Positions 1-53,981 of a stretch of 64,000 nt of DNA are shown one piece after another. Both the position numbers and the translations under genes were made by a program. The stretch's first letter is position 1; the number at the start of each line of letters is the position of its first letter. Below the pieces are notes generated by a model, which saw only the letters and a program-made list of their open reading frames with translations, was not told the DNA's origin and did no database searches. The DNA is from Cyanidioschyzon merolae (lineage: Eukaryota), in the NCBI GenBank assembly GCA_000091205.1, contig AP006490.2; one strand, 5' to 3'.

Positions 1-1856
1 CTCGCACTTTGTGACATCTAGGCCTGTATCGGGCAGCGCGACTTATTTTGCAAACGTTCAAGGTAGATGAAGTGAAAGACTTGGTCGTGGGGATGCATTC
101 CGGGCCGAAAGCGCGAAACTGCCGGTGCGGTATCCCAAAGTCGTGAGGAAGGAGCCAAACCCCTGAACGTAAACCAGAGGGAGCTATCCAGCATTTGCAT
201 TGCCCGGTATGATCGCGAGTTGGGCATCACGGATGCGCGAAGGCATAGCAAGGAGTGGAATGATGGCATCAGGGCCTCGTTCGTATGCTCTGAGCACCGT
301 ATCGAGCTAAGAGGTACGCTGTGTACGATTCATTCAGTGGGCACAAGGCATGTCCATGGCTCATGTGGACGAACTTTGGTTGAAGCATATAGGACGGCGC
401 TGGGGTCACCAACGCTTGCGGTTGGACAGAGACAGGAGGCACGCACTCGCGCCCTTCTTCGATGAGCTGGAAACCGACTTGACCGATACCTGGCGTTGTT
501 TCGTGAGAGCGCATAGCGCTGGACGGGCTGTAGCGTGCAAACGCTGCACTCCTGGTTTCATCGACGAGGTCCTCTAACGAGTGCAGGAATCAATTCTATT
601 CGATGCCCATCGATGTGTTCACGACGACGCGTATGCGTTAAGAGTCCGAATGCAGGCTGAAACCGCAATACTAGAATAGCACGAAACACAGCCGGATGCG
701 TTGGATGGTGCGTGATACACGCAGCAAATTTCTGATGGAGAGGCAGTCGCAGATGAGCCGCTTGCCACGGTGTGATGCCGCAAACCACCACGCGTACAAG
801 CACTATCTGCATCCAGACTCGAGCGCCGCGATCAACATCCGGAATTGTCTCGAGCCTCGGCAGCGTCCAATGACTTGGCGAATTTTCGAGCGAATCGTTT
901 CGTGCTCACCGTTGGCACTATGCTGAGACGCCGCGGATCGTAGAAGAAAAGATTAGTCATCAAGAAAGGCAGGCTTCGATTCTCGCCCACAGCTCGACAA
1001 TGCCATGGTACCGTCCAGCGATCCAGCAATGCTCGAGCGCCGCCCATATGTACACGAACCTCAAGGGCAAGTGGTGAAAAACAGCAGTGTCCTGGCATTC
1101 GAAATTAGTCAGTATACGCGGATCCTCTGGGATGATATTACCTGTGTTGACGATAATGCTGGATGAAAAACGAGTGCACCAGCGAGAGAGAACGATCATC
1201 ATGCATACGCACGGAAACGCAGTACCGCAAGGCACAGCGCTTTTCTACCGACGTGTCGTCGATCACGGGTAGACCTTGACCTAGCCAACGGGTGCTAGCG
1301 TTGCCTCCAGTCCAACCAATTCGTCACCGAAAATACCGGGACTTGGCCTCGTGCAAGCACTGAGAGTCACTTGGGGCTAGCATTGACCGCGAGCATGTTC
1401 ACGACCATACCGCATTCCTAGAGTGAACGATGCCTGCTTGAATGATCTGTTCTCTAAAATCTACCTCCCTTGTACTCCATCAACGAAACTGGTCCCTACT
1501 TCTGTATGTGTTCTTCTCTGTCAATCTTCGACTCGTATCCAGCTGCTGACATGAATGCAGTTGCGAACACAGGCAGAGTGCATGCGACCCAAGCCCGCTC
1601 GCTGCCGCATGCTCGTTCGCTTCGTCATCATCATCATCAGCGACATCGACATCAGCCTCTTGACACGACCTACAGGCTTCTACACTGAACCTGGTGCCGT
1701 TGTTGCACGGTGCTGGCCTAGTGGTGTTCCCGAGTATATCGGGGCGTGCTTGCATTAGTACCTTTTTAACTGCGCACAAGCCCGTGAGAGGCCCGGCGCT
1801 GTCGCCATAGACGCACGACACCTGAAACGTCCAGTCGAGAGCACGTCGTGTGACAA

Positions 1857-4619: not shown

Positions 4620-7109
4620 AATGCGTCCAATTGTATGCACTGCATTGCTTGTATTTATCGTCACATAACGTGACGAGTTACGCAGGAGTTTTCGCCACGT
4701 GTACCCGGGTATGTTTGGGCCGGATACCCGGAGACCGCACTTTGCTTGTATTTCACGGTATATATTGAAAGATGGAGGGCGATGCGCGGAGCGCTCCCGG
4801 AGTCGTAACTACATTCATTTCGCGGACTTGTTGTTGGTGTCATGAAACCGCTTCAGGTCAGTTGCCGCATGCCTGCGGACGACGTGTCGCTCGGGTGGTT
4901 GCCCGAGTAGCGCCGCGATACGCCCGCTCCTGGTGCGCATCGCCAGTGGAGGCGTTTCCATTTGGGTTGTACTCCTGCTCGAGTGATCCACGGCGATGAC
5001 AGGTATCCAAAGTGCTCACGTAAGAGTGACTTGCATGGATGAATGATGATGGTGAAGTGCTGCGATGCGTCGGAAGCACCGTTGTCCGTCTGAATCGTGT
5101 GCGCTGCTTTCGTTCTGGCTGGAGCGGAATGATCTATTTCGGGAAGGAATACGCGCAGTATCGCTGGGGCCGCTGCAGACCTCGCTTCGATAGATGCTGG
5201 CGCGTTACTTGCGTTTTCTTGTACGACATACCCGAGAATACTTTCGATGCTGCAACGTCGAAGACGTAGAAATGCTGCAGCAACTATTCGTGTTGCTGTT
5301 GCTGTGTAGGCGTCTTTGTGTACAGCCAGGCTTGTGCGCCCGTGTTCGTCATCGTCGATCGAGGCATGTACACAACCATTCTTTTGGACCAAACGCTCCA
5401 CTTATGTGACGGGTACCGATCCGAGCAAGGATTCCTGGAAGCATGTGCGTGCATACGCGGGCTCTCTTCCGGTCTCGTGACCAGACGGTCGTCCAGTGGG
5501 ATGCTGGTACCGCAATCAGCGCCGCAGTGCTTGCGAGCGGCTCGCATGCATCCAAACTCGTTCGCCGTTCACGATATCATGCCATGGTGCGATGGAAATT
5601 AATTCTTCATCGTCTTCAATACGGCTAGGAATTAAGCTGGGGTACGGATACGCTGCTGGCGAGCGCGTTTCAGCGGACGTTTGGCTCACACGCTGACGCT
5701 GCTCATTCAACGGTACATGTGCCCGACGCGCCTGCACTCGCGACAGCGGCGCGCTGTAGCGAGCGGCTTGCCACGAGATGCCAAGTCGCGCACAGCAGTA
5801 GAACGCTGACGTGCTGCAACGACTCGTAGACGCTGGGCCCGCGCATTCGCCCTGCACCGTCGTACCAGAGCAGGCGCAGGGACGCGTCCGGATGCAGGGT
5901 GTTGAACGTACGAGCGTTTTCCAAAAATATACAGAAATGTTCCGTTTGTGCTAGATGAACAAGGAATACCAGGCGTGTACTGTCGCCCGATCGGTGCTTG
6001 CGAGCCACATCCAGTAGGGAAAAAATGTACATAAATGTGCTGTATTGTCTAGACACCCTGATGACACTTGGCATGCCCGCTGCCTCGTTGCCATTTGGAC
6101 CGGGAAGCGCGGAACGGCGGGCGCGCAGACACCATGCCTTGCCCGCCTGGCATCAGCGCTAGCAGCGCAGGTGCGGGTGACGTCTTTGAACTCGAGTATG
6201 GTCTGCCGCCGCTTTCTGCAATCGAATGCATTTTCGCATTGTATACCATTAGATCGAAATGAGCATGCCGTGTACCGAACAGAACGTAGACATGTTGCCT
6301 GCAGAAAATGTTCTGCAATGAACAGTGCAACGAGGACTGCATTCTTCACTCTATTCAGTCGTACTGCAGTGCTCTGATGGTTGAGGAATATTGAAAGAAA
6401 GAAGGATATGCGCTCCGTGCCAAAAAAGATAGGCTTAAAGACTGATTGCGTTCAATCGTGGAACAACGATGCGTTCATCAACTTATGGAACGCAAAATCG
6501 ACGATAGCAACGGCAACGAGTGTCTCCGGTTCTGATCAGATTGTCCATGTTCTATTAAAAACACTGGAACACAGTCCCAAAAATACTTCTGTTTCACGCA
6601 CGGGCATCTTCCACCAAAGTCGTGACGATAGCGTTCCTGGAACGTTACGATCGGTATGAAGCGCAAGGACGTAGGGTTATGTTTTCAGTCGGTGAGACTC
6701 GCTTCGGACGAACCGTTCGGAGCGTATACGGGAATTTGCGGAGCACGGAGCCCGTTCTATGCACGATCGAGCTCGAAGAGAAGGCTCATACATCAGCACT
6801 CACTCTCTCGAATCAATGAAGGATTTTGCCGGACGTCTGACGACCTTGCTCTACTGGACAACGTCGCATTTCACCATTTCCCTTCGCTTTGGAGCTTTTT
6901 GCCGATGCAGTCGGGGTAGAGCTGCTTTTCATTTATGTGCACGCTTCGTGGTCGAACCGCATCAAATGAGTTGTTTCTGTCATGAAACGTAATGATCGCT
7001 TCACTGGTCGAATCCCTGGACCATTCAGTATAGCGTGAAACACTGGGACACTAGTCGTCATTCCTGCGCAAGTCCGTCTCCGCCGGGAAGGACCTCACCA
7101 AGGTCCATA

Positions 7110-7585
7110 AAGAAGTGCGTTCACTATGAAGAAATAAGAAATCCAAGGGGTGAGCTGGGGTGCAAAGTCCTGCAGGTCGAGATGGCTAAAAAGCAGCGGA
7201 GCCCTGATGATATATAGAAAAGTATGGAGCGCTGAGAGAAGAGGAAACGAAGGGATGGCGCAAGTTCGAGGACTACTCGCACTGGCGGGTTTAAGCGGCG
7301 AGGGCAATAAACACGTGGAGTTCGTGAACCGAGACTTGAAAGCTGCTATCAATATCAGGAGATGCACGGTGCTGGAATGGAGACCTCCGGAGCTAACACG
7401 ATCCATCTCTGTAGGACAAACTTTTAAGGTGGAATTATACGATAATGTGTTGAAATCAGTTGTAGGCGGCCGGTCCAAGACGACGGAAACACGTCTGTAC
7501 GTCAGTCGGAGACGTTTTGTCTAGGGCGCTGGTCGCCTGCTACTGTACACCGTTGGCGTCGTTCGACTTTAGAACGGCGTTTGTC
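7110..7585 (+). mobile_element. Family-I Fanzor/TnpB-like element, 3' fragment (copy A). It covers the zinc-finger-like region, the RuvC-III motif and the conserved 3' terminal block, and is degenerate.
   Basis: The translation 'RGELGCKVLQVEMAKKQRSPDDI ... AQVRGLLALAGLSGEGNKHVEFVNRDLKAAINIRRCTVLEWRPPELTRS...VVGGRSKTTETRLYVSRRRFV*' matches copies B and C. It ends in the shared block 'ctagggcg...ctactgtacaccgttggcgtcgttcgact'. Stops and frameshifts are present. Confidence 0.6.
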
Positions 7586-8178
7586 GTTCGTGTGCAGTCG
7601 TCGATGTACGGGTTAGGCTCTCGAAACTAATCGTATAGAGTAGACCTGAATACAGTACGCGCTTTTGTCAAGTGCCTCGATCGTGCCAGGCGAGATGCAA
7701 GGCTCAAACCTCATGGCAGACATGGACGCTACCTGTGTGCACTGCCTCTGCCAAGATCGCCGGATCCGGAGGACGAAGCAGGCACCATAACTTGGACAAC
7801 GACAGCAGCATGGAATTGAATTGAACTGCCAGCAGTTCCAGAACATAACACGGGATAGAAGCAAAATTCAGGTCAGTTCCTTAATCCGGCGTCCGTGCGG
7901 CATGCATAAGAAGCATAGGGATGAAACGTATATCCGTGTTCAGGAACACCACCGTACGTTGTTTGGTTACGATCAATAAAACTAACGAAATTCCTAATGA
8001 GTAGAGCGATGCACACCTCATCCGCACGAGCGTAGGATACTACGATGGCTACGCTTTTGATTGAAGCGTCGAGAGGAATCGTGTCAGGCGCCTGCATCCC
8101 CTTGTATGTCAGGGCGGTACTGCGATGGGCGGGAGCGTCGGCACCAGCGACATAGCCTATAACAGGAGATCGTTCTGC

Positions 8179-10975
8179 GTGAGTTTCCGATCTAGGACAC
8201 TTGCTTTCCGCTGCAGCGCGATGCGAACACGCATGTGCCAATGCGGGGTGTCGGACACGTGTCCTTCATCGATCGGTGAGGCGTCTCGCGCGGTGCACGC
8301 ATCGCGCTCGGTGAGTGCACCTCGTAGATCGGGCAGTCAACTGACACGATGCGCATGCCGCCGTTGAAGAGTAACGCGATTGGGATCAGTAGCGTGTAGC
8401 TGTAACGTAAAAGCTGGATTTCAGGTGAGGTCTTAGCCAAGTACAGTCTTTCAGTTCATTTTTGTTTCAGCCCTCAAACAAGTGTATTCAAGTGTTTTTT
8501 TCGCAGTGTATAACAGAAGCGTTCAAAGAGCGTTCTTGTTCAAAAAAACTAAAAAAGGAAAGATATGAAAAAGCAAGTCGACGATCCTGGAGGCACAGGG
8601 TCGCCGGCTGCCAGAAAAAAAAACAAAAATCAGTACCGAGTCCAGAGGAAAAGGAGGAGAAGAGGAAGGACCGAAATGGGGAGGTCCTACGTCGAAGGCG
8701 ACAAGAAAGACGACTTTACGACCAGATGGTGGATAAAAGCTGTCTTCTTAAACATATCTATGATCCCTACAGGGAAAAGTTGCGAGACGCTATCAAAGAA
8801 CGTGTTGCGTCATACTCGAAGAGTATTGTCAAGGCGTCATCAGGACTAGTGCATTTGGCGAGGGAGATGTATCGCGACGTGGCGCACATGGAAACGGTCG
8901 AGATTCCGGACGAGTTTTTCGACAAGACCTGTATTCGTCACCTGATGGTTGGTAGCGAGGAAGCGCGGAGGGAAAATATGCTATTGCATGCCCTGCACGA
9001 AAACATCGCGGAATTCTGCTTCGAGGGTACCCCATTCAGGGGTGACCCGGATATTTACACATACGGGGCGATGAAGTACCTCACGAACCTGAAGAACCTT
9101 TTGACAATGAACCTGGACCGTTTCGTAGTACGCGCCGTATTTTTGTGCTCTACCCGCGCGTCTCTCGCAACGGGATATGGACAATTTCAATGCCATCACG
9201 AAAGATCGTAAGCATGAATATGAGGTCGAATTTGTCGACAAGAAGCCGTCACGCAGGAGAGCAAATGATGATTCCGTCATCCGTTTGGTCATACAAGAGC
9301 ACCGTGCGGTACTGGGGTTGGCGAATCCAACAGAAAGGATATCAGAGTTAAAAAACGATAAGGAAAGATACGATCGCCTCATTCTGCGGTATTTAGTGCT
9401 TCTAGACCTAGAACTTGAATGCAAGGCAGAGATGAAGCTGAGTGGGGAAAAATGAAGAGTGGGAGAGACGGAAGGCTTTCCTTATGGGTAAGCGCTTCAA
9501 CGTCGTACCAGTGTGCAACATCAAGTCGCATTTTGTGACCGTCGACTCCATAGTCCTTTACAGCATCATGATGGAGATCAGTCCGGAGTTGAATGTTAGC
9601 AGGGAGGAGTTCACCGGCGAAAACCGGGAGACGTACTGGAAGAGCATCTTCGATTTCAAACGTCTCAAAGTAAGCAAACAAAAGGTATTCACTGGGATGA
9701 TCGAAACCGATGGAGTAGCCATGTGTGTACACTCTCGGCGGTTGAAGAAAGATCGTCCTGGCCCGCCTTTGGCTTCGCCCGTGACGAAGGATGAAGAAAA
9801 CAAAGAGGAGGATCCTGCGATGTAGGAGGTAGTGGGCAACAACGTTGCCGTTGACGTGACGAAGTATGAAGATGAGAAGGAGGCGGAACCTGCGACGCAG
9901 GAGGTGGAGGATAACGACCTTGTCGTTGCCGCGGCGAAGTATGAAGATAAGAAGGAGGCGGATCCTGTGATGCAGGAGGTGGAGGATGACGACTTTGCCG
10001 TTGGCGCGGACCCCGGAAACACAAATATCATCACCATCGCAGCACCGAAGCGTGCGGAAGATGGTACTGGCGGCAACTTACGCCAGAAAGACATGTGACT
10101 TTTGAGGTTCTCGAGCGCGAAATACTATCGAGAATCGGGAATAATGAATGCGAGGAAACAATTCGAGATATGGTATGCAGGAGTGAAAGCGCATTTGAAG
10201 CGATCAGCCAGGTGACGAGCCGTGGAACGAACTTTGAAGCTTTTCGGATATTCGTGAAAGTTCGTGTTGCCCATTTGGAGGCGCTGTGGAAAGAGTATAT
10301 AAAGCCCAGATGGGCTCGTTTGCGTATGAATCTGTACTGTGGTAAGCAGCGTGCGTTCGCGAACTTTTTCAATCATTTGAGCACCCTGAAAGAGGACAAG
10401 ACTCAAAGGCTCGAAGTAGCGTATGGGGAGGGGCGCTGGCTCACCCAAAAAGGGTACACACCAGTTCCAACGACAAGAACTTACTAGGAGTGCGCAAGGC
10501 GTTTCGTTACGGTACCGATCGATGAGTTTCGAACATCGTACACACACCACGAGCTGGGGTGTACACTTCAGTGGGTCGAGATGGAAAAGTGTCAGCGGAG
10601 CTCTGAAAATACAAAAAAGTACGGACCGCTGACGGAAGAGCAAATGGAAAGGAGGGCGAAAGTTCGAGGGCTACTCGCATTAGTAAGTACAGTCAGTGGC
10701 AAGAAACGTATCGAGTTTGTGAATCGTGACTTTACCGCAGCTATCAACAGAACGAGATGTGCGGTGATGGAAGGTAGACCGCCAGACTAGACAAGAGAGA
10801 ACTTTGTTGGACAACCTCTCAAAGTGGAATCATATGAGACAAACTTGAAACAAGTAGTAGGTGGCCCGTCGAAACAGACTGGCACGCGTCTGCACTTCAG
10901 TTGGAGCCGTTTTGACTAGGGCGGGTCACTCGCCACTACTGTATACGGTCGGCGTCGTTCGACTTGCGAACGGCA
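8179..10975 (+). mobile_element. Family-I Fanzor/TnpB-like element, full-length but degenerate (copy B). It has a ~385-bp 5' leader, a ~2.35-kb nuclease ORF broken into at least six frames, and a conserved ~60-bp 3' terminal block. The right end lies ~63 bp upstream of the VAMP7-like ATG.
   Basis: Nucleotide and protein collinearity with the inverted copy at 45852-48498 over the whole length, including the non-coding leader (8179-8565 vs revcomp 48115-48498). Boundaries are set where similarity to the other copies stops: 'cgtgagtttcc...' on the left and '...gtcgttcgact' on the right. Confidence 0.7.
8565..10917 (+). pseudogene. Fanzor/TnpB-like RNA-guided endonuclease pseudogene (copy B). It starts 'MKKQVDDPGGTGSPAARKKNKNQYRVQRKRRRRG...' with an NLS-like basic cluster and is interrupted by several frameshifts and stops.
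   Basis: The segments collinear with TnpB are a RuvC-I-like '[24 protein letters not shown]' (cf. 'GIDLGxxxxaTxS'), a RuvC-II region '...RLEVAYGEGRW...', a 'PIDEFRTSYTHHELGC' block (cf. 'VdpaYTSQtCsxCG') and RuvC-III 'KRIEFVNRDFTAAINRTRC' (cf. 'DRDxNAAxNI'). Confidence 0.65.
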
Positions 10976-10990
10976 TTCTCTAGCGGTGCC
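10880..10990 (+). ncRNA. Candidate omega-RNA / right-end scaffold of family I. It spans the 3' end of the nuclease ORF plus the conserved terminal block. This is hypothetical.
   Basis: The ~60 bp immediately after the stop codon is conserved in all three copies: 'ctagggcgNNNNNNNcactactgta(c/t)acggtcgg(c/g)gtcgttcgact'. In TnpB/Fanzor systems the guide RNA is encoded at exactly this position. No expression data are available. Confidence 0.2.
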
Positions 10991-11037
10991 AGCTTTTAAA
11001 CGCGCTCGAGTCGAACGGAAACTCGATTTGAGAAACC

Positions 11038-13337: not shown

Positions 13338-13547
13338 GTATCCTTAGGACTCACCCAAATACACTCCAACATGCATCACACAAACGCATCCTACCATAAA
13401 AAGCTGCATGAAGCGCCCCACTAGAGAAACATCCCGCTGTGTACCAGCAGCACCGCATCGATGGTGCACGCGGCATCGAGTTGCGCGCCTGGCGGGGATC
13501 GCCACAGCGCCGCCTCCAGCCGCCGCGTCGACGCCGGACACGGCAGG

Positions 13548-13672
13548 CAGGTATACAGGGATACAGGTATTCAGGGATACAGGTATTCAGGGATACAGGT
13601 ATTCAGGGATACAGGTATTCAGGGATACAGGTATTCAGGGATACAGGTATTCAGGTATACAGGTATACAGGT
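13548..13672. repeat. 16-bp minisatellite (GGATACAGGTATTCAG) x~6.5, with degenerate flanking units. It sits in the ~350-bp divergent intergenic region between the PGM-like and RanBP1-like genes.
   Basis: Direct reading of 'cagggatacaggtattcagggatacaggtattcag...'. Confidence 0.9.
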
Positions 13673-13686
13673 AGGTAGATAGATAC

Positions 13687-14559
13687 GTGTGTTCCTCAGT
13701 TTCAAGGACGGCTGCTGCACAGCGCTTTTGGACCGCGATCAGAGCAGCTGGCTCTAACATGAGCGATCAAACTAGACAATTCTCGGAGAAAGAACAGGAG
13801 AGCGCACAACCTCGCAAGGAGGAAGCAGTGCGTTCATCGTCACCGGAGCAAGCATCGCGAACACCTCCTGCGCCTACCGGGTTTCGTTTCGTCGTACCTA
13901 CCACTGCCACTGCTACTGGTGGTGATGCTGGTCAAGGTAGTGATCGTGAAGCGAATCAGAGCGCTGCACCGGTGAAAGCTCCCCAGGTCGTTTTTGGCGG
14001 TGTCACCGAAAGCGTCGACCAGGACGTTGGTGCCGCTGATGACGACGGTGCAGCGGAGACGCTCGGCGAGGAGGACGCCTCGACTGCCGACTGGAAGCCC
14101 CTGGTGCAGCTTGACTTGGTTCAGATTAAGAGCGGCGAAGAGGACGAGGATGTCGTAGCAAAGTATCGAGCAAAGTTGTACCGCTTTGATAAGAGCATGC
14201 GAGAGTGGAAGGAGCGCGGCACCGGCGAGATCAAGTTTCTCAAGCACCGGGTCAGTGGACGCATCCGCCTGCTGATGCGACGCCAACAGACGCTGAAGAT
14301 TTGCGCCAACCACTACCTTTTACCAGAAATGCGACTGGAAGAGAATATGGGCTCAGATCGATCCTGGGTATGGACGGCCGTCGACTACGCGGACGAGGAA
14401 CGCGACGAGGCGGTTCTAGCGATTCGCTTTAAGGACTCGGAAACGGCAAAGCGGTTCTACGATACCTTCGAGGAGCTTCGCAAAGAGATGCAAAGTTTGC
14501 TTGTATCCGGCAAGTCGGCGACAGAACAATCGCGCCAAGGTGAGCAGACGGCAATCTGA
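13687..14559 (+). CDS. Ran-binding protein 1 (RanBD-containing, RanBP1-like). The ORF start is probably downstream of the listed one.
   Basis: RanBD core 'EEDEDVVAKYRAKLYRFDKSMREWKERGTGEIKFLKHRVSGRIRLLMRRQQTLKICANHYLLPEMRLEENMGSDRSWVWTAVDYADEE...AIRFKDSETAKRFYDTFEE' matches the RanBP1 consensus (WKERG[TV]GD[VL]K[LI]L.H, KICANH, [AS]IRF). Confidence 0.8.
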   Translation: MCSSVSRTAAAQRFWTAIRAAGSNMSDQTRQFSEKEQESAQPRKEEAVRSSSPEQASRTPPAPTGFRFVVPTTATATGGDAGQGSDREANQSAAPVKAPQVVFGGVTESVDQDVGAADDDGAAETLGEEDASTADWKPLVQLDLVQIKSGEEDEDVVAKYRAKLYRFDKSMREWKERGTGEIKFLKHRVSGRIRLLMRRQQTLKICANHYLLPEMRLEENMGSDRSWVWTAVDYADEERDEAVLAIRFKDSETAKRFYDTFEELRKEMQSLLVSGKSATEQSRQGEQTAI

Positions 14560-20559: not shown

Positions 20560-21700
20560 TGGTTTTAGGATTGTGGGTCGTGTTGCACAAGTGGCTGCTT
20601 CGACGCTTTGCTGCTCGATTTCGTTAAGGGAATCAAGATGATTCGCGATGCTTTTGTAAACCAGATTCCTAGAATACTCGATTGCTTGATGCAATTCGTA
20701 TGTTCAAGTCTCCACTCTTGTCCTTTGCTTACATTTCGCATGATGAAATCACGCTTTTTTCAAGTTTTCCTATTTCTTTTTTCGAAGCAACTGGAGAGCG
20801 CAGCAATACTTTCCACTGGATTGACGAGGAAAACAAGTCGACGTTGTCAACGAACGACTTGTTCACGAGCTCGTGTGTCCAGTGTCTGCAGAACGATTCA
20901 CGTCCCATAATCGGTTCGGTTCGAAATACGCACCTTAGGTTCTTTGTGGCCGTCTGGGAAGCGGCATTCGACACCAGCTTGGTATATCTGTTCAGAGACA
21001 CTCCATGCGGTTCCCGCCTCTTCTTTTCACATGGAAAAGGGTATTGGACACGGACTCCAGTCACTTCAGCGATCGCTTTCCGCGGAGCGCATGTCTCTGC
21101 TTTCAAGGAAGCGAGCTTGGACAGATCGAAATTTCTCGGCCTGTTCTCTAGTCTTTAGTTCTGCTTTTATTTGTTTCATCCTGGAAAGCATTGCGTCGCA
21201 CAGATCCTCCACCGAAAGCAAGCGTATGTGCTTGCAGATGCAGCATACTCGCCAGGTGTATCGCCACAAAGACGCCCGTACCCTTGGGTACCGCACTGGG
21301 CACGTAAACGATGGATAGGTACGTCTGGACCTGTCAAGGACGTGTACCGAGCGACGGCGCTAGCCCTCTGGTGCCACACGGCATCTCCTGAAACAGAAGG
21401 CACAGTGAACTTGCGGGAACACCTGACCACATGGAAGCGTTGCTGCTACGAAAGCCGCACCGAGGCCAGATACGAACACAATGAGAATGGCGAGCGAGTC
21501 GTCATTGCAACGACCGTCGGTGCATGAAATGCGTCGACAACAACCGGGAGCAGCGATATCGAGACTTGAATGCGGCCATCAGCATCCTTCAACTACGAAA
21601 AACGGATCTGGAAGCAGAGGTGAGACGGTGTTAATGACATCGGGAGATCAGAAAGGAGCAGAGAAAGCAGTCGCGGAAAAAGTCCACAAGAACTAGTGCT
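20560..21700 (+). mobile_element. Family-II composite element, copy a. It carries degenerate coding segments (seg A, seg B) and a TnpB/Fanzor-like C-terminal remnant. It lies in the intergenic region between the Nup155-like and USP-like genes.
   Basis: Seg A 'VKGIKMIRDAFVNQIP' (~20650) is similar to 'VPGIRVIRDALEQAFV' in copy b. Seg B 'DTPCGSRLFFSHGKGYWTRT' (~21020) is similar to 'SSDFCLRCLHGEGSWTYS'. The micro-ORF ~21485-21633 is 'EWRASRHCNDRRCMKCVDNNREQRYRDLNAAISILQLRKTDLEAEVRRC'. Its composition is AT-richer than the flanking genes. Confidence 0.5.
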
Positions 21701-26122: not shown

Positions 26123-26307
26123 CCCAGAAGTGATGCTTCCCCACTTCGCTGGTTAGTTGACCCAGTACTCCAACTTTGCGCCCAACTTGTGATTCTTGGG
26201 ACGTTTCTGAGCGCCGTCACCGCACGTGTTCTGCGGCTTCGTAGCACGTGTTTTCGGCTACCGGACAAGCATTGATGCCTCTTGGCGTTCGCGCGGCAAC
26301 GGGGCGA

Positions 26308-26530
26308 TCACCAGCAGCTGTGCAGGGCTACATCCACAGATACGACTCTATGGGCTGTATAAGGTGTTGCTATCTAGCGAGATGTATGCTTTCAATGAAA
26401 TTACCAGCAGCTGTGCAGGGCTACATCCACAGATACGACTCTACGGCCTGTATAAGGTGTTGCTATCTAGCGAGATGTATGCTTTCAATGAAATTACCAG
26501 CAGCTGTGCAGGGCTACATCCACGAGTCCT
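26308..26530. repeat. 93-bp tandem repeat, ~2.4 units, ~190 bp upstream of the USP gene start.
   Basis: The unit 'accagcagctgtgcagggctacatccacagatacgactcta(t/c)gg(g/c)ctgtataaggtgttgctatctagcgagatgtatgctttcaatgaaatt' is repeated at ~26310, ~26403 and ~26496 (partial). The overlapping ORFs show a repeating 31-aa string. Confidence 0.85.
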
Positions 26531-32847: not shown

Positions 32848-33794
32848 AAAGGAAACGCGCATCGTGCAGTTCCGGATGAGATTGGCAAGCCGCCCCCGCA
32901 CCTGGACGCGTAACGTACGTGGTGCCGCTGCCGCCGCCGCAACAGCAGCAGCGAGCATGCCCTGAATACGCTACGCATCGCTCCGAATCAGAAAAAGAAC
33001 AGAAATGGACCACGAATTACCGGTTAGAGAATCGTATCTTTCCTGCTATACGGTTCGCGTTGACCGGTTATTCGAAATTTTACGTTCTAGGCGGAATGCT
33101 CCGCTAGCAGGACGAGTCTGCCAGGATAATGTTTCGTGCTCCCGCCAGCGACAGGTGATGTAGCGAGACATGAACAACTCGTCCGCAACGCTCTTTATTC
33201 TGCGACTAGGGACAGTTAAGGTGCGTATGGGCGCCGCCCATGTTGCAATTATCTCCTAGCATATCGCTTCGCGCTGCCTGCAGCAGCGCGTCTGCCTGCA
33301 CAGCTTGCAGGCTCCGAAAATGATAAAGAATCCCGACTCCGTATCAGGTGAAGCGTTCCTCGATCCGACGCTCTCATTGGTATGGCAAAGCCGCTCTGTC
33401 TCTGTGCTGCATCCGTGCCAGAGGCATTGGCGCTATTGCTGGTGCTCAAAACAGGTACTCTGCGCAAGACGGAACGCACGGAACGACCATTATCTCTGAG
33501 GGGCATTGTGCATACTGGAACTCGGACGTAGTGCTACGCATGACAGACGCTTTCACCAGCACCGATATCCATCACGTAACCTGGAGCTCCTTACACAAAT
33601 ATATCAACGTTCTGTCGATCGAAATCGATATTCTCTCAGTATCTCCGAGAGGATGGATGGGTAATGGACCTTGAACATACCGCGAAGCATGACAGGCGCT
33701 TTCACGGACACCGATACTCATCACGGAACCTCGAGTTCCAAATCCAAATATATCAACGTTCTTTCATGTAAGAAACAGGATCGCCCCCGAATCG

Positions 33795-45241: not shown

Positions 45242-45688
45242 TCAGGGACCAGCGCGGCCAAGCTTTTCCTTGAGCACTCGCAAAAGTGGCTCAGCCTTGT
45301 CCGGCTCCAGTCGGGGCCCGCCACCGGGATGGCGGATCAAACCATCACCAGGTTTGCGCGGAATAATATGGATGTGCACGTGCGGCACAACCTGGCCGGC
45401 CTCCCGTCCGTTATTTACCAGTAGGTTGTATGAGGGTGCACCCACCGCCGCTTTGATCGCTTTTCCTAAGAGAGGCACTCGCGCGAAAACCGCGGACACC
45501 TCCTCGGGAGGCATCGTCTCGAGCACCTCGTGATGCGACCGCGGTACCAGTAACGTATGCCCCGAAGTTGCTGGAAACAGATCGAGAAACGCAGTACAAT
45601 TCTCGTCACTGAAAACCTTGTAGCATGGAAGCTCACCACTAATGATTTTACAAAAGATGCAGTCTTGTGCTGGGTCTGACGAGGCCAT
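45242..45688 (-). CDS. HIT-family hydrolase (Hint-like histidine triad protein). The likely start is 'MASSDPAQDCIFCK...' near 45688; the listed ORF extends upstream into the adjacent repeat end.
   Basis: 'CIFCKIISGELPCYKVFSDENCTAFLDLFPATSGHTLLVPRSHH' and the histidine triad 'HVHIHIIPR'. Confidence 0.8.
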   Translation of the reverse strand: MASSDPAQDCIFCKIISGELPCYKVFSDENCTAFLDLFPATSGHTLLVPRSHHEVLETMPPEEVSAVFARVPLLGKAIKAAVGAPSYNLLVNNGREAGQVVPHVHIHIIPRKPGDGLIRHPGGGPRLEPDKAEPLLRVLKEKLGRAGP

Positions 45689-45851
45689 CCTCAGCGAGCG
45701 TCGTGAACTTGGCTCCGGAGTACCACAGCGCACCGGCCGCCTGCAAGTGAAAAGATATTGCTTCCGTGCGCACCTGCTCGCCAACTTCCCGATAGCGAGA
45801 CTTGACGCGGTCCAAGCGGGTAGTGCGCTCCTCTGCAGCGAAACAAACATA

Positions 45852-48498
45852 GAACCACAGTCGAACGACCCCGACCGTGTACAGTAGTGACAAACACGCC
45901 CTAGACAAGAAGTCGCGAACTGGCGTACAGACGCCTCCCCGTCTGTTTGGACCGGCCCCCTACTACTGCTTCCATTTTTTTCTCATATAGTTCGACTTTG
46001 AGAGGTTGTCCAACAAAGTCCTCTCTTGTCAGCTCTGGATGTCTCTGCTCCAGCACCGCACATTTCCTTATATCGATAGCGGCATTAAAATCTCGATTTA
46101 CAAACTCCATCCGTTTCTTGCTATCATTCGTTGTACTAACCAGCGCAAGTAGCCCTCGCACTTTCGCTCTCCTTCCCATTCGCTCTTCCTTCAGCGCACC
46201 CTACTTTGCTATGTCCTCAGGGCTCCGCTGGCACTTTTCCATCTCGACCCTCTGAAGTGTACAACCCAGCTCGTGGTGTGTATACGATGTTCGAAATTCA
46301 TCTATCGGCATTGTACCAAAACGCCATGCGCACTCCTTATACGTTCTCGTCGTTGGAGCTGGCGTAGTTCCTTTTTGGGTCTTCCATCGCCCTGCTCCGT
46401 ACGCTACTACGAGCCATTGACTCTCATCCTCCTTCATGGCGCTCAACTTATTGAAAAAGTTGGCGAACGCCCGCTGCTTCCCACCGTACAGATTCATTTG
46501 CAGACGAGCCCACCGGGGCTTGGTATACTTCCCCCACAGTGCATCCCAACGAGCAACGCGAACTTCCATGACTTTCCGAAAAGCTGTAAAGTCCGCCCCG
46601 CGACTCGTCACCTCGCTCAAAGCTTCCAGGTGATCCTTCATTCCTGCATTCCATGTCTCGATTTTTTCCTCGCATTGATTATAAAGGATTCTCGGTAATG
46701 TCTCTATCTTTAGAACTGAAAAAGACACATGTCTTTCTGACGTAAGTTGCCGTCAGTACCATCTTCCGCACGCTTCGGTGCTGTGATGGTTATGATATTT
46801 GTGTTTCCGGGGTCTGCGTCAACGATAAACTCGTAATCCTCTACCTCTTGCGTCGCAGGATCCTCCTCTTTCTCATCTTCATGCTTCGCCGAAGGCAAAG
46901 CCGAGGGCGGAACATGGCGATCCGCCTTCAGCCGCCCATAGTGTACACACAAGGCTACTCCATCGGTTTCGATCATCCTAACGAAGAACATCTGCTTGCT
47001 CACTTTCAGAAGTTTGAAACTGAAGATGTTCTTCCAGTACGTCTCCCGATTTTCGCCGGTGAACTCCTCCCTGCTAACATTGAACTCCGGACTGATCTCC
47101 ACCATGATGCCATAGAGGACTCTGGAGTCGATAGTCACAAAATGCGACTTGATATTGCACATTGGAAACATGTTGCAGCGCTTTCCCATTAGGAAAGCCT
47201 TCCGTCTCTCCCACTCTTCATTTTTTCCTCACTCAGCTTCACCTCTGCCTTGCGTTCGAGCTGTCGGTCCAGAAACACGAAATAGAGCAGGATGACTTGA
47301 TACCATCTTTTTTCATCAATTTTCAACTCTGATACCTTGTCTGTTGGATTCGGTAGCCCCAGTACCGCACGATGCTCTTGTATAACCGCACGGATCGCGG
47401 AAGCTTCATTCGTACTCCCTTTTGACGCCTTCTTGTCGACGAATTCGACCTCATCTTCATGCTTGCGATCGTACGTGATGCCATTGATAATCGCCCATTT
47501 TCCACTGCGAGAGATGCCCGGGTAGAGTGCAAACACGGCGTGTAACATGAAACGTTCGAGGTTCACTGTCAAATGGTTCTTCAGGTTTGTGATGTACTTC
47601 ATCGCCCCATAGCGGTAAATATCCCGGTCACCCCTGTATCGAGTACTCTCGAACCTGTAAAAGGGATGTGTTTCGTGCAAGGCATGCACTAGCATATCTT
47701 CCCTCCGCGTTTCTTCTCTACAAAGCATCGGGTGACGAATACAGGTCTTGTCGAAAAACTCGTCTGGAATCTCGACTGGTTTGACGTCCGTCACTTCGCG
47801 ATACATTTCCCTCGCCAAATGCATCAGTCCTGACGACGCCTTGAAAATACTCTCGGAGTACGAGTCGACACGTTTTTTGATAGCGTCTCGCAACTTTTCC
47901 CTGTAGGGATCCTTGATATGTTTGAGAAGACAGGTTTTCACCACCATCTTGTGGTACGGTCGTCTTTCTTGCAGCCTTCGACGTAGGGCCTCCCAATTTC
48001 GGTCCTTCTTCTTCTCCTCCTTTTCCTCTGGACTCGGCACTGTTTTTTTTTCTGCCAGCCGGTTACCCTGGGCCTCCAGGATCGTCGACTTGGATTTTCA
48101 TATCTTTCCTTTTTTTCGTTTTTTTGAACAAGAACGCTCTTTGAACGCTTCTGTTATATACTGCGAAAAATCAATCGAATATTTTTACTTGAGGTTTGAA
48201 GCACAATCGAACTGAAAGACTGTACGTTGCTATGACCTGAGCAAAAATACAACTTTTACAGTAGATCTACACGCTAGAGATCAGGATCACGTTTCGCTTC
48301 CATGACGGAATACGCGTCTTGTCTCATGCCTGCCCGATCTACGAGGTGCGCTCGCTGAGCGCGTTGCGCGCACCGCGCGAGACGCCTCACCGATCGATGA
48401 AGGACACGTGTCCGACGTCGCTTCGGCACATTCGTGTTCGCATCGCGCTGCAGCGGAAATCAGCTGTCTTAGATTGGAAACTCACGTATCTAGCGCCG
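45852..48498 (-). mobile_element. Family-I Fanzor/TnpB-like element, inverted copy C, the most intact copy. It sits between the HIT gene (~160 bp from the element's 3' end) and the C2H2 zinc-finger gene (~285 bp from its 5' end).
   Basis: Collinear with copy B over its whole length on the minus strand. It ends in the shared 3' block (revcomp of 45852-45913 = 'ctagggcgtgtttgtcactactgtacacggtcggggtcgttcgact') and starts with 'cgtgagtttcc' (revcomp at ~48498). Confidence 0.7.
45901..48200 (-). pseudogene. Fanzor/TnpB-like RNA-guided endonuclease, nearly intact (~740 aa). It is split into four ORFs (47189..48040, 46710..47189, 46201..46728, 45901..46179) by two single-nt homopolymer frameshifts and one in-frame TAG. 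There is an additional A9-run frameshift between the ATG 'MKIQVDDPGG' and the main frame.
   Basis: RuvC-I '[24 protein letters not shown]', RuvC-II region 'QWLVVAYGAGRW', 'MPIDEFRTSYTHHELGCTLQRVEMEKCQRS' (zinc-finger position), and RuvC-III 'KKRMEFVNRDFNAAIDIRKCAVLE'. The frame breaks are at 'gaggaaaaaatgaag' (A6, where A7 would be continuous) and 'atgtgtctttttcag' (T5, where T6 would be continuous). The TAG aligns to TAC (Tyr) in copy B. Confidence 0.65.
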
Positions 48499-52060: not shown

Positions 52061-53981
52061 TACTTGTCATGCTCACCCTACCCTCCGTGCTGAAAGGGTT
52101 CCTACGACGCGCCGCTCGTGAAGAGCTCCCTGACGCCATAGCAGATGATGACCGAGTCGTTGACCGCTCTACTCTACGTCATCAATTCCTACAAGCATCT
52201 GTGGATTCTAGCGCTGGCATAGTACAGGTTCGCAAAGTTTTTCTGGCCAAGTACTTGTCTGCGTCGTCCAGGCTGCACTGAGCCGCCAAGAGTACGAGGT
52301 CCTCGACACTCGCAAAGCCGTTAACCAGAGAACCCGAGGTGCGCGCGATGTCGACGAAAGCACGGAGCAGATGCTTCGTATCCGACAAGTGCTCGAGCCG
52401 GGCAAGCGCATAAACTGCCTTCGGTGGCAATAACGCTTCAACGAAGCTCCCCATTTTTCCAGCGCGCACGACAGCCTCGAATTACGCGGACTAGATATTG
52501 AAGTGAGAGCATTGCTGGAGCGTGTTGCAAACAAGTACGTGTTCTCGGACGCGGGCAATGTGTTCCGGCAAAAGCGAGTACATCCCGAATCATTCGTTCA
52601 TGATCGCAGTGCCGGATAGTGGCTATGATTAGAGCTCCTCGTTCGAGGGCGCACCCACGAGATGAGGTTCTCGCTGGAAGTCGTCTCGTCTGAAAGTGGC
52701 GACGTTGTCCAGGAGCGACGCGTACAAATCTTTCGAAACGCTCCATGATATCTATGCTGCCCGTACCCCATTGTTTCCCTGGTATATACCTGGTGTGACT
52801 AGGCCGTGCCTCCGTTGACAAACAAGCGATACATAGCTTTTTATTATAGCTTGTTCGTCTCTTTTCTTCATGCATGCAGCACCATTTTTGACGCGAAAAT
52901 TCCATGACTTGCACAAAACAGGTGCCGACGAACCAGGCGGCCTCTGTCGCGGCGCCAAAAACAACGAGCACCAGTTCATCTCGCGGACGATCCGAGTTAC
53001 CGAAACGTTCCCATTTGCTCTGCATCCGTTCTTCATGCCGCGAAACTGTTCTAAATCAAATGGATTCATGGAGAATAAGTTGGATTGCTTAAGCTGAAGC
53101 TTGTTGTTTTTTTGGTATTTCTCGAACAAAAGAAGATGCTTCATCTTCAACATGTCATAAAGCATGTACTCGGCGGAAAATCCAGACTAGAGACGACGTC
53201 GAGAAAATTCGATCTGTGCACACTTCTGTTGCCCAAAGTACTGACGAACGCTGGTCTGGGAGCGATTGCTGCGATGATGCGGGTTCTCAGTCCCATTTCC
53301 ATCCAAACAGAAAAGACGAACGCCTCTGGCAGCATGTCCCTTGTGAGGTGCCACGCTGCTGTTGTGGAATGCCATTTCGTGGATGGACGCAAGACTAAAG
53401 GCATTTGTCTTTCAACTTAATCTATGATCCTTCATGAGAAGATCAGTGACCCTGCGGCATGAGCTTGTGAGCAAGTCGTACAGGGATAATGTCGAGTTTT
53501 TCTCGCCGTCAATTCAGCGGCGCCAATTGCTAAGTCGTCGAGTTGTCTCGAAACAGAGAGGGTTGAAAGTTTGACAAACGCGTGATTTGGCCATGCTAAA
53601 TGTAAGAAATGGAGAAGAGAATAGGCCAGCATGAATGCATTGGATCATGATACCAGTTATTTTACGTATACTTGATCGTGCGCGTTGCGAACCATCTTGT
53701 TGATGGTAACGTAACGAATGCCATCATCAAAGAGTCGAAGAAGCCACTCCATAGACACGCCCGAGAATCCTAAAACCAAATGTGAGCCTCCAGCCTATAC
53801 TGTTGTTCTTCGCATGTCGAGGCTGCACATTCAGATCAACGTTCAGAAACATATCGAAAGGCACGCGCAGAGTAACCAGTCAAGTTTTCGGTATCAAGTC
53901 TGACACAGGTGTCGCTCGCGAGCGGCCGACACTGTGCAGCCGGCGTCCGCCACGCTGGTTTAGCGTCGCTCTTCCCGCGAC

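Follow-up and report, generated by a model that had tools for sequence, protein, structure and literature searches.

Does the conserved block of DNA which directly follows the stop codon of a nuclease gene at three places in the genome of the red alga Cyanidioschyzon merolae encode the scaffold of a guide RNA? The block was noticed in a 64,000-nt stretch of contig AP006490.2 (assembly GCA_000091205.1), referred to as the window throughout, where it terminates three copies (A, B, and C) of a transposon-like element. An initial annotation proposed that it represents the right end of this element and the scaffold of an omega RNA (ωRNA), the guide RNA of TnpB and Fanzor nucleases. Here, the block is identified from its sequence as the non-coding right end of CMe-1A, a Fanzor1 family, and our analysis suggests that in ancestral active elements it probably served as an ωRNA scaffold. 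This interpretation rests on secondary structure detected at the level of the family and not on conservation.

Sequence comparison across 77 relatives, in which about 70 nt are conserved 3′ of the stop codon, shows the block to be the element's right end. Majority-base conservation amounts to 0.66–0.90 within the block as opposed to 0.39 in the flank, and close copies at different loci lose their similarity directly past a terminal ...GGTG. In copy B, the stop codon TAG (10917–10919, + strand, in the frame of a tblastn match at 10194–10901) is followed by GGCG-GGTCACT-CGCC-ACTACTGTATACGGTCGGCGTCGTTCGACT, exactly as quoted in the initial annotation, and the motif recurs with a few substitutions after the stop codons of copies A (7522–7524, + strand) and C (45903–45901, − strand). 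The assignment as right end thus stands, since conservation reaches from the stop codon as far as ...GGTG, with unrelated flanks beyond. The flanks had been said to diverge completely after ...TCGTTCGACT, but copies A and B still share TTnnGAACGGCrTT at this point and the conservation of the family continues to ...GGTG, and the element ends drawn earlier missed the true ones by 24 nt (B), about 28 nt (A), and 4 nt (C). When eight other family copies were used to build a covariance model, it matched the window at 10915–10988 (copy B, E=9e-11), 7520–7588 (copy A, E=8e-10), and 45905–45856 (copy C, E=2e-5), with no further credible sites in the 64 kb. The ends of copies B (10988) and C (45856) are taken from this model, while that of copy A (~7592) follows from homology to the related locus L066, the model stopping at 7588. 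All 77 model matches in 569 kb lie at or beside the 3′ end of a Fanzor open reading frame (ORF) and share its orientation. Rfam returned no match, neither for the whole window at gathering thresholds nor for a well-preserved copy searched permissively, and no tRNAs were found.

The block consists of a short stem-loop (SL1), a linker and a terminal hairpin (SL2). In copy B, SL1 occupies 10920–10934 (GGCGGG-TCA-CTCGCC), and its stem may be extended by pairing of the stop-codon AG with the linker CU. It is followed by the linker ACTACTGTA (10935–10943), where conservation within the block is highest, and by SL2 (10944–10988), which ends in ...GCGGTG at the right end of the element and retains the inner stem CGTTCG/CGAACG, its outer stem being eroded (all on the + strand). 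The corresponding parts are SL1 7525–7537, linker 7538–7547, and SL2 7548–~7592 in copy A (+ strand), and SL1 45900–45889, linker 45888–45880, and SL2 45879–45856 in copy C (− strand), where SL2 has suffered an internal deletion of about 24 nt, yet a 10-bp hairpin remains. Across the family, SL1 takes the form GGCG-loop-CGCC with a hypervariable loop and 5–6 bp, which pairing of the stop codon with the linker CUA would raise to 7–9 bp. The family linker has a mean majority-base frequency of 0.90, the highest in the block. SL2 starts with CAC(C) and ends with (G)GUG at the terminus. In the best-preserved copies (L034 and L071), its 19 bp, five of them G·U, form a perfect stem, and in other subfamilies (for example L009, L057, L068, and L078) its interior has been replaced while the hairpin closes at the same place. 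A gap of 5 nt separates the copy C right end from the ATG of a HIT-family ORF (45242–45850, − strand; interval 45848–45856), whose first ~45 residues lie ahead of the HIT domain and are possibly not genuinely coding.

In an ancestral active element, the SL1 hairpin would start at the stop codon, the conserved linker ACUACUGUA would remain single-stranded in the middle of the scaffold, and a long G·U-rich SL2 would follow, its 3′ arm reaching precisely to the transposon terminus ...GGUG. If transcription continued past this terminus, the RNA would carry some 15–20 nt of flanking DNA as its guide. For copy B, the predicted guide position, if an ωRNA were made, is the flank CCAGCTTTTAAACGCGCTCG (10989–11008, + strand), which replaces the position 10965–10980 put forward earlier. 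The guides originally predicted for copies B (TGCGAACGGCATTCTC) and A (TTAGAACGGCGTTTGT) correspond to the loop and 3′ arm of SL2 and not to flanking DNA, because the element continues past ...TCGTTCGACT to its terminal ...GGTG. Transcription of the block, its binding by Fanzor, and the guide function are plausible steps which we infer for these ancestral elements.

The nuclease next to the block had been likened to those of TnpB and Fanzor systems, and comparison of profiles and structural models bears this out. A profile search of 1.8 billion representative sequences retrieved 2053 relatives of the element protein, and a diverse 30-sequence alignment served as family profile. Searched against the sequences of the PDB, this profile matched PpFz1 of Parasitella (E=4e-21), SpuFz1 of Spizellomyces (3.5e-15), and GtFz1 of Guillardia (3e-8). 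The diverse profile was needed, since a profile from close relatives alone missed the PDB Fanzors; in Pfam, ORF fragments and full relatives gave only sub-threshold matches to Cas12f1-like_TNB. An AlphaFold 2 model of the family protein (predicted local distance difference test, pLDDT, 78; predicted template modeling score, pTM, 0.75) likewise matched SpuFz1 in Foldseek (E=1.8e-16, target-normalized TM score 0.73), with TnpB and Cas12 far behind. Furthermore, the RuvC D/E/D motifs DPGNTN, DEFRTS, and NRDFNAAINI are still readable in the broken window copies. Taken at the level of sequence and predicted structure, the ORF adjoining the block is a genuine Fanzor1. At the position of the C4 zinc finger (10590–10700 and 46200–46300; DEFRTSYTHHELGC...EKC), only H-H-C...C is found instead of CxxC...CxxC, which suggests that the zinc-binding site of TnpB and Fanzor proteins is degenerate or altered in the CMe-1A family protein. 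Three tandem 75-bp units (9780–10004) lie inside the ORF just 5′ of the RuvC-I aspartate and encode acidic repeats; their copy number varies in the family, from one in copy C to four or more in the relatives P0001 and P0009, and the model shows them as disordered (pLDDT <50, residues 374–471). A much more diverged Fanzor-like remnant is present at 133–866 (+ strand; 27–33% amino acid identity to the RuvC half, tblastn, E=5e-10), with no recognizable SL1-linker-SL2 block 3′ of it.

Which element, then, do the three copies represent, and are they still active? The family CMe-1A of C. merolae, deposited in Repbase, was described as a Fanzor1 family of ~150 copies that are ~80% identical to a consensus of ~3 kb, lacking terminal inverted repeats (TIRs) and given without determined target-site duplications (TSDs; Bao and Jurka, 2013, Mob DNA 4:12, PMC3627910). 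The window element agrees with this description, being a multi-copy, ~3-kb, TIR-less C. merolae element of ~80% identity with a single Fanzor1 ORF and a separately repeated 5′ segment, and copies A, B, and C belong to CMe-1A as matched on the published description rather than on the Repbase consensus. The host is confirmed by the SNARE and phosphatase neighbors of the element, which are identical to the C. merolae 10D proteins BAM79839.1 and BAM79840.1. When this description appeared in 2013, ωRNAs had not yet been discovered, and the two-hairpin right end, the exact terminus, and the covariation reported here are not part of it. A BLAST search of copy B against the window showed that copies B (~8178–10988, + strand) and C (48486–45856, − strand) span ~2.7 kb each and are 80–83% identical, and that copy A (~7020–7592) is a 3′ fragment with 73% identity to B. 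The core of copy B (8299–10988, + strand) is broken by frameshifts and stops, copy C (45856–48486, − strand) also has a broken ORF, and copy A (7020–7592, + strand) is 5′-truncated and decayed, retaining the last ~170 ORF codons and the right end. None of the three has an intact nuclease ORF; the reading frames of B and C require 4–6 frame changes and contain internal stop codons. A metagenome scan yielded 237 relatives in hot-spring samples, of which 80 loci were retained, and an intact ORF was found in none of these 80; for CMe-1A itself, Bao and Jurka report that a few copies do have one. With their ORFs broken and SL2 eroded or partly deleted, the window copies are dead relics from which no function is expected today.

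Across the family, both stem-loops form with compensatory changes and on the sense strand, which supports the conserved secondary structure that the initial annotation had named as a check of its proposal. The main covariation analysis compared 24 pairs in 51 distinct copies with 500 shuffles, on a covariance-model-derived alignment that was fitted to the structure under test and hence favors it. Here, 87.6% of cells were paired as opposed to 82.6±0.6% in shuffles (0/500), half of the pairs (12/24) had changed on both sides (1/500 shuffles), and the covariation score reached 0.185 compared to 0.126 when shuffled (0/500) and 0.016–0.041 with partners slid. An inner SL1 pair shows a CG:20/GC:17 flip even on a structure-blind MAFFT alignment. 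Independently of any alignment, cognate SL2 arms pair at −18.4 kcal/mol as opposed to −14.3 kcal/mol for chimeric arms, and chimeric arms are as good as cognate ones in only 15% of cases when arm identity is below 50%. The 70-nt segments of L034 and L071 fold with −33.1 and −39.1 kcal/mol (z=−4.8 and −4.9; 0/200 shuffles as good), compared to only −19.7 and −25.8 kcal/mol for their antisense strands. The sense strand is in fact the more stable one in 54/54 copies (−56.0 vs. −42.6 kcal/mol), an advantage which is expected because of the many G·U pairs. An all-against-all covariance scan was uninformative, since most of its signal came from G opposite variable pyrimidine columns.

Several observations weigh against the proposed ωRNA scaffold. 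The alignment bias mentioned above is one of them. Majority-base conservation of the block (~0.79) equals that at third codon positions (~0.80; 54 non-redundant copies), per-copy z-scores are modest (medians −1.9 and −1.3), and the blocks of all three copies in the window show no folding advantage over their shuffles (z −1.0, +0.2, and −1.8). RNAalifold on plain MAFFT alignments recovers SL1, or SL1 and the inner part of SL2 only, a partial recovery which is explained by the many indels in SL2. G/T-rich composition could partly contribute to the sense-strand advantage. Furthermore, no motif is common to the sequences 5′ of the left boundaries (pile-up at 8299–8303) that could represent a target-adjacent motif (TAM), which is not definable because the left ends are heterogeneous. 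Finally, a cis-acting transposition signal would also be expected to take the form of a terminal hairpin. The conservation pattern, which had been taken as a sign of an ωRNA role, is thus withdrawn as an argument: block identity is 73% between B and A and 60% between B and C (which carries its ~24-nt internal deletion), as compared to 72–78% in the final 150 nt of the ORF and ~47–53% in unrelated flanks under the same alignment scheme. Since it does not exceed the level of third codon positions, it marks the transposon boundary only and not selection.

Synonymous-site conservation, relic copies that fold like shuffles, and the fact that almost all copies are pseudogenes would also be expected if the block were a functionless, neutral 3′ untranslated tail whose hairpins are slowly decaying historical palindromes. 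The same can be said of the linker sequence ACUACUG, which is complementary to CAGUAGU ~62 nt 5′ of the stop codon and is paired with it in most single-sequence folds; the resulting long-range helix, CAGUAGU(G)/(C)ACUACUG, forms in 90% of cells almost without covariation. Neutral decay does not readily account, however, for the compensatory double changes in half of the pairs, for the better pairing of cognate arms, or for the wholesale exchange of SL2 interiors with pairing intact, as in L009, L057, L068, and L078. Moreover, the linker (0.90) is the sole part of the block to exceed the third-codon baseline. We therefore consider a functionless tail improbable and less likely than the proposed scaffold. 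For the scaffold role proposed initially, position, family-level stem-loops, covariation, and sense-strand preference speak in its favor, while the copies that gave rise to the proposal turned out to be relics.

Comparison with characterized guide RNAs allows the putative scaffold to be placed more precisely. The ωRNA of SpuFz1 consists of a 75-nt scaffold and a 14–15-nt guide derived from the flank, and that of GtFz1 overlaps the last 17 codons of its ORF (PMC10432273). Structures of Fanzor1 ωRNAs reveal a conserved 7-bp first stem-loop followed by variable stem-loops (one in SpuFz1 and PpFz1, three in GtFz1) and then by the guide (PMC11423790). As in these systems (Saito et al., 2023, Nature; Xu et al., 2024, Cell), the CMe-1A candidate extends from the 3′ end of the ORF to the right end, has the same order and size as their scaffolds of ~70–75 nt with a short stem-loop and a variable one, and is predicted to take its guide from the flank directly past the conserved end. 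Conversely, elements with known Fanzor1 ωRNAs possess TIRs and a defined TAM (CATA, TTAA, or ATN), whereas CMe-1A has no TIR and no recognizable TAM; their SL1 is a clean 7-bp stem, in contrast to the 5–6 bp (or 7–9 bp with stop-codon pairing) seen here, and they share neither sequence similarity nor an Rfam family with the CMe-1A right end. Comparable, too, are the TnpB elements of the IS200/IS605 group (ISDra2 and IS608), in which a TnpB-family nuclease gene is likewise followed by a structured right end and TIRs and TSDs are absent. Their right end combines the roles of transposition signal and guide scaffold, and that of CMe-1A could do the same. CMe-1A differs from them by its eukaryotic host, the lack of a TnpA (Y1 HUH) gene, and the lack of an identified pseudoknot. 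In addition, the IS200/IS605 scaffold overlaps ~100 nt or more of the ORF, whereas that of CMe-1A is proposed to start at the stop codon, because the final 70 nt of the ORF displayed no excess synonymous conservation. An extended scaffold that takes in part of the ORF, comprising the long-range stem and two alternative sets of internal stems, shows 80–90% pairing with essentially no covariation and is neither supported nor excluded. An ωRNA-like fold in the better-preserved relatives is, against this background, expected rather than surprising. No description of a C. merolae ωRNA was found in the searchable literature.

A different function of the same hairpin has to be weighed at this point. 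The terminal hairpin could act mainly as a DNA-level cis-acting signal, read on single-stranded DNA by a putative transposase, for example of the HUH/rolling-circle or recombinase type, whether in addition to encoding an ωRNA or in place of it. In line with this, CMe-1A lacks TIRs and detectable TSDs, the 3′ arm of its hairpin coincides with the terminus, and end hairpins have been stressed for HUH transposons by Bao and Jurka and by Craig. A small hairpin, GCGCTC-GGT-GAGCGC, whose variants preserve pairing, is present at the left end too, and the fuzzy, modular 5′ ends and frequent head-to-tail pairs resemble those of rolling-circle elements. Because the right-end hairpin and the ωRNA overlap in IS200/IS605 elements, which itself lends weight to a cis-acting signal, the two roles are not mutually exclusive. 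On the other hand, G·U pairs make up about a quarter of SL2 (5/19 in the best copies), and these would be weak as G·T in DNA and C·A on the other strand, and folding is strand-asymmetric. No transposase gene lies in or beside the copies, apart from weak DDE_3 remnants near two loci, and the end is not Helitron-like. Moreover, TE-N2_CMe, which corresponds to the 5′ 635 bp of CMe-1A (Bao and Jurka, 2013, PMC3627910), is reported to have reached ~70 copies without the CMe-1A right end. A hairpin acting mainly on DNA accordingly appears rather unlikely to us.

The left side of the element is less uniform than its right end. For copy B, the commonest family boundary falls at 8299–8303, and a longer 5′ variant, common to few loci, begins at ~7856 or ~7601. 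The commonest left boundary (8299–8320, ~20 loci) starts with ATCGCGCTCGGTGAGCGCACC and contains the hairpin described above, which in other copies is replaced by CGCA...TGCG or GCGCG...CGCGC with pairing maintained. At least three alternative repeated segments occur 5′ of it. Neither inverted repeats between the left and right ends nor a left-end copy of the terminal arm were found. When an empty site was sought via contigs encoding the neighboring SNARE protein, the insertion was present in all ten places listed. As to the type of carrier, a Tc1/mariner-type (DDE_3) transposon was rejected on the basis of missing terminal inverted repeats and the missing DDE gene in the window copies. A Helitron was rejected as well, given the terminus ...GGTG, the absence of CTRR, and a hairpin whose 3′ arm reaches the terminus rather than ending 10–12 nt short of it, and Replitrons have not been reported in red algae in the literature. 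A 30%-identical relative, P0044 (European Nucleotide Archive metagenome; L093 1553–3541), lies downstream of, and overlaps, a DDE_3 (Tc1/mariner-like) gene at 412–1599. The weak DDE_3-like remnants near CMe-1A-like copies are located at L026 6347–6952 and L059 1397–1966.

Shared 3′ ends together with variable 5′ ends of Fanzor copies would also be explained by retroposition, in which case the structured tail would be a recognition element for a reverse transcriptase, as in “stringent” pairs of long and short interspersed elements (LINE/SINE), and the copies would have been spread by it. The 3′ end common to all copies and the RNA-like structure of the sense strand agree with this idea. The variation at the 5′ end is modular, however, with alternative repeated segments instead of plain truncation, and neither a poly(A) or simple-repeat tail nor TSDs are present. 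No element bearing a reverse transcriptase carries the tail, every model match adjoining a Fanzor ORF. Fanzor1 elements are known cargo of DNA transposons, and a distant relative sits beside a DDE_3 transposase gene. Recognition by a reverse transcriptase is therefore hardly probable at all and, like the neutral tail, less likely than the proposed scaffold.

The arrangement of the copies raises a further point. In the window (7520–7860), the right end of copy A is followed within ~10–20 nt by the long 5′ variant of copy B, beginning ...TCGATGTACGGGTTAGGCTC, and the same junction recurs in L041 (789–1140) and in L058/L066 (1026–1440), the two ends abutting or lying this close together. In six or seven loci, a copy with a right end precedes a full copy by 0–1.2 kb, and the two invariably share their orientation, which points to head-to-tail tandems or to insertion beside existing copies. 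It is conceivable, though very improbable in our estimation, that the right end is a working ωRNA in a TIR-less element and that the head-to-tail layout results from guide- or target-directed insertion or homing. If true, this would represent a eukaryotic case of an RNA-guided nuclease shaping the landing site of its own transposon.

The window contains several additional repeats, all unrelated to the block. They comprise a 16-bp (8+8) microsatellite, CAGGTATTCAGGGATA, at 13516–13695, a 93-bp tandem duplication with 97% identity (26307–26492), a pair of 129-bp repeats (33488–33765), an inverted pair of 67 nt separated by 33 kb (20560–20626 and 53712–53778), and a 44-nt family with three copies (21167, 29665, and 51641).

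For the annotation of the genome, the outcome is an ordinary one, namely three dead copies of a family described in 2013, with the block marking their 3′ boundary. If the right end of CMe-1A was a real ωRNA, its two-hairpin structure would be the first model of a guide RNA for a Fanzor1 of red algae, and would come from a host which grows at ~45 °C and pH 1–2. More than 200 natural variants would then be available, showing which pairs tolerate change. It would also mean that elements lacking inverted repeats retain Fanzor1 ωRNA modules, which bears on the mobility of these elements and on the role of their nuclease.

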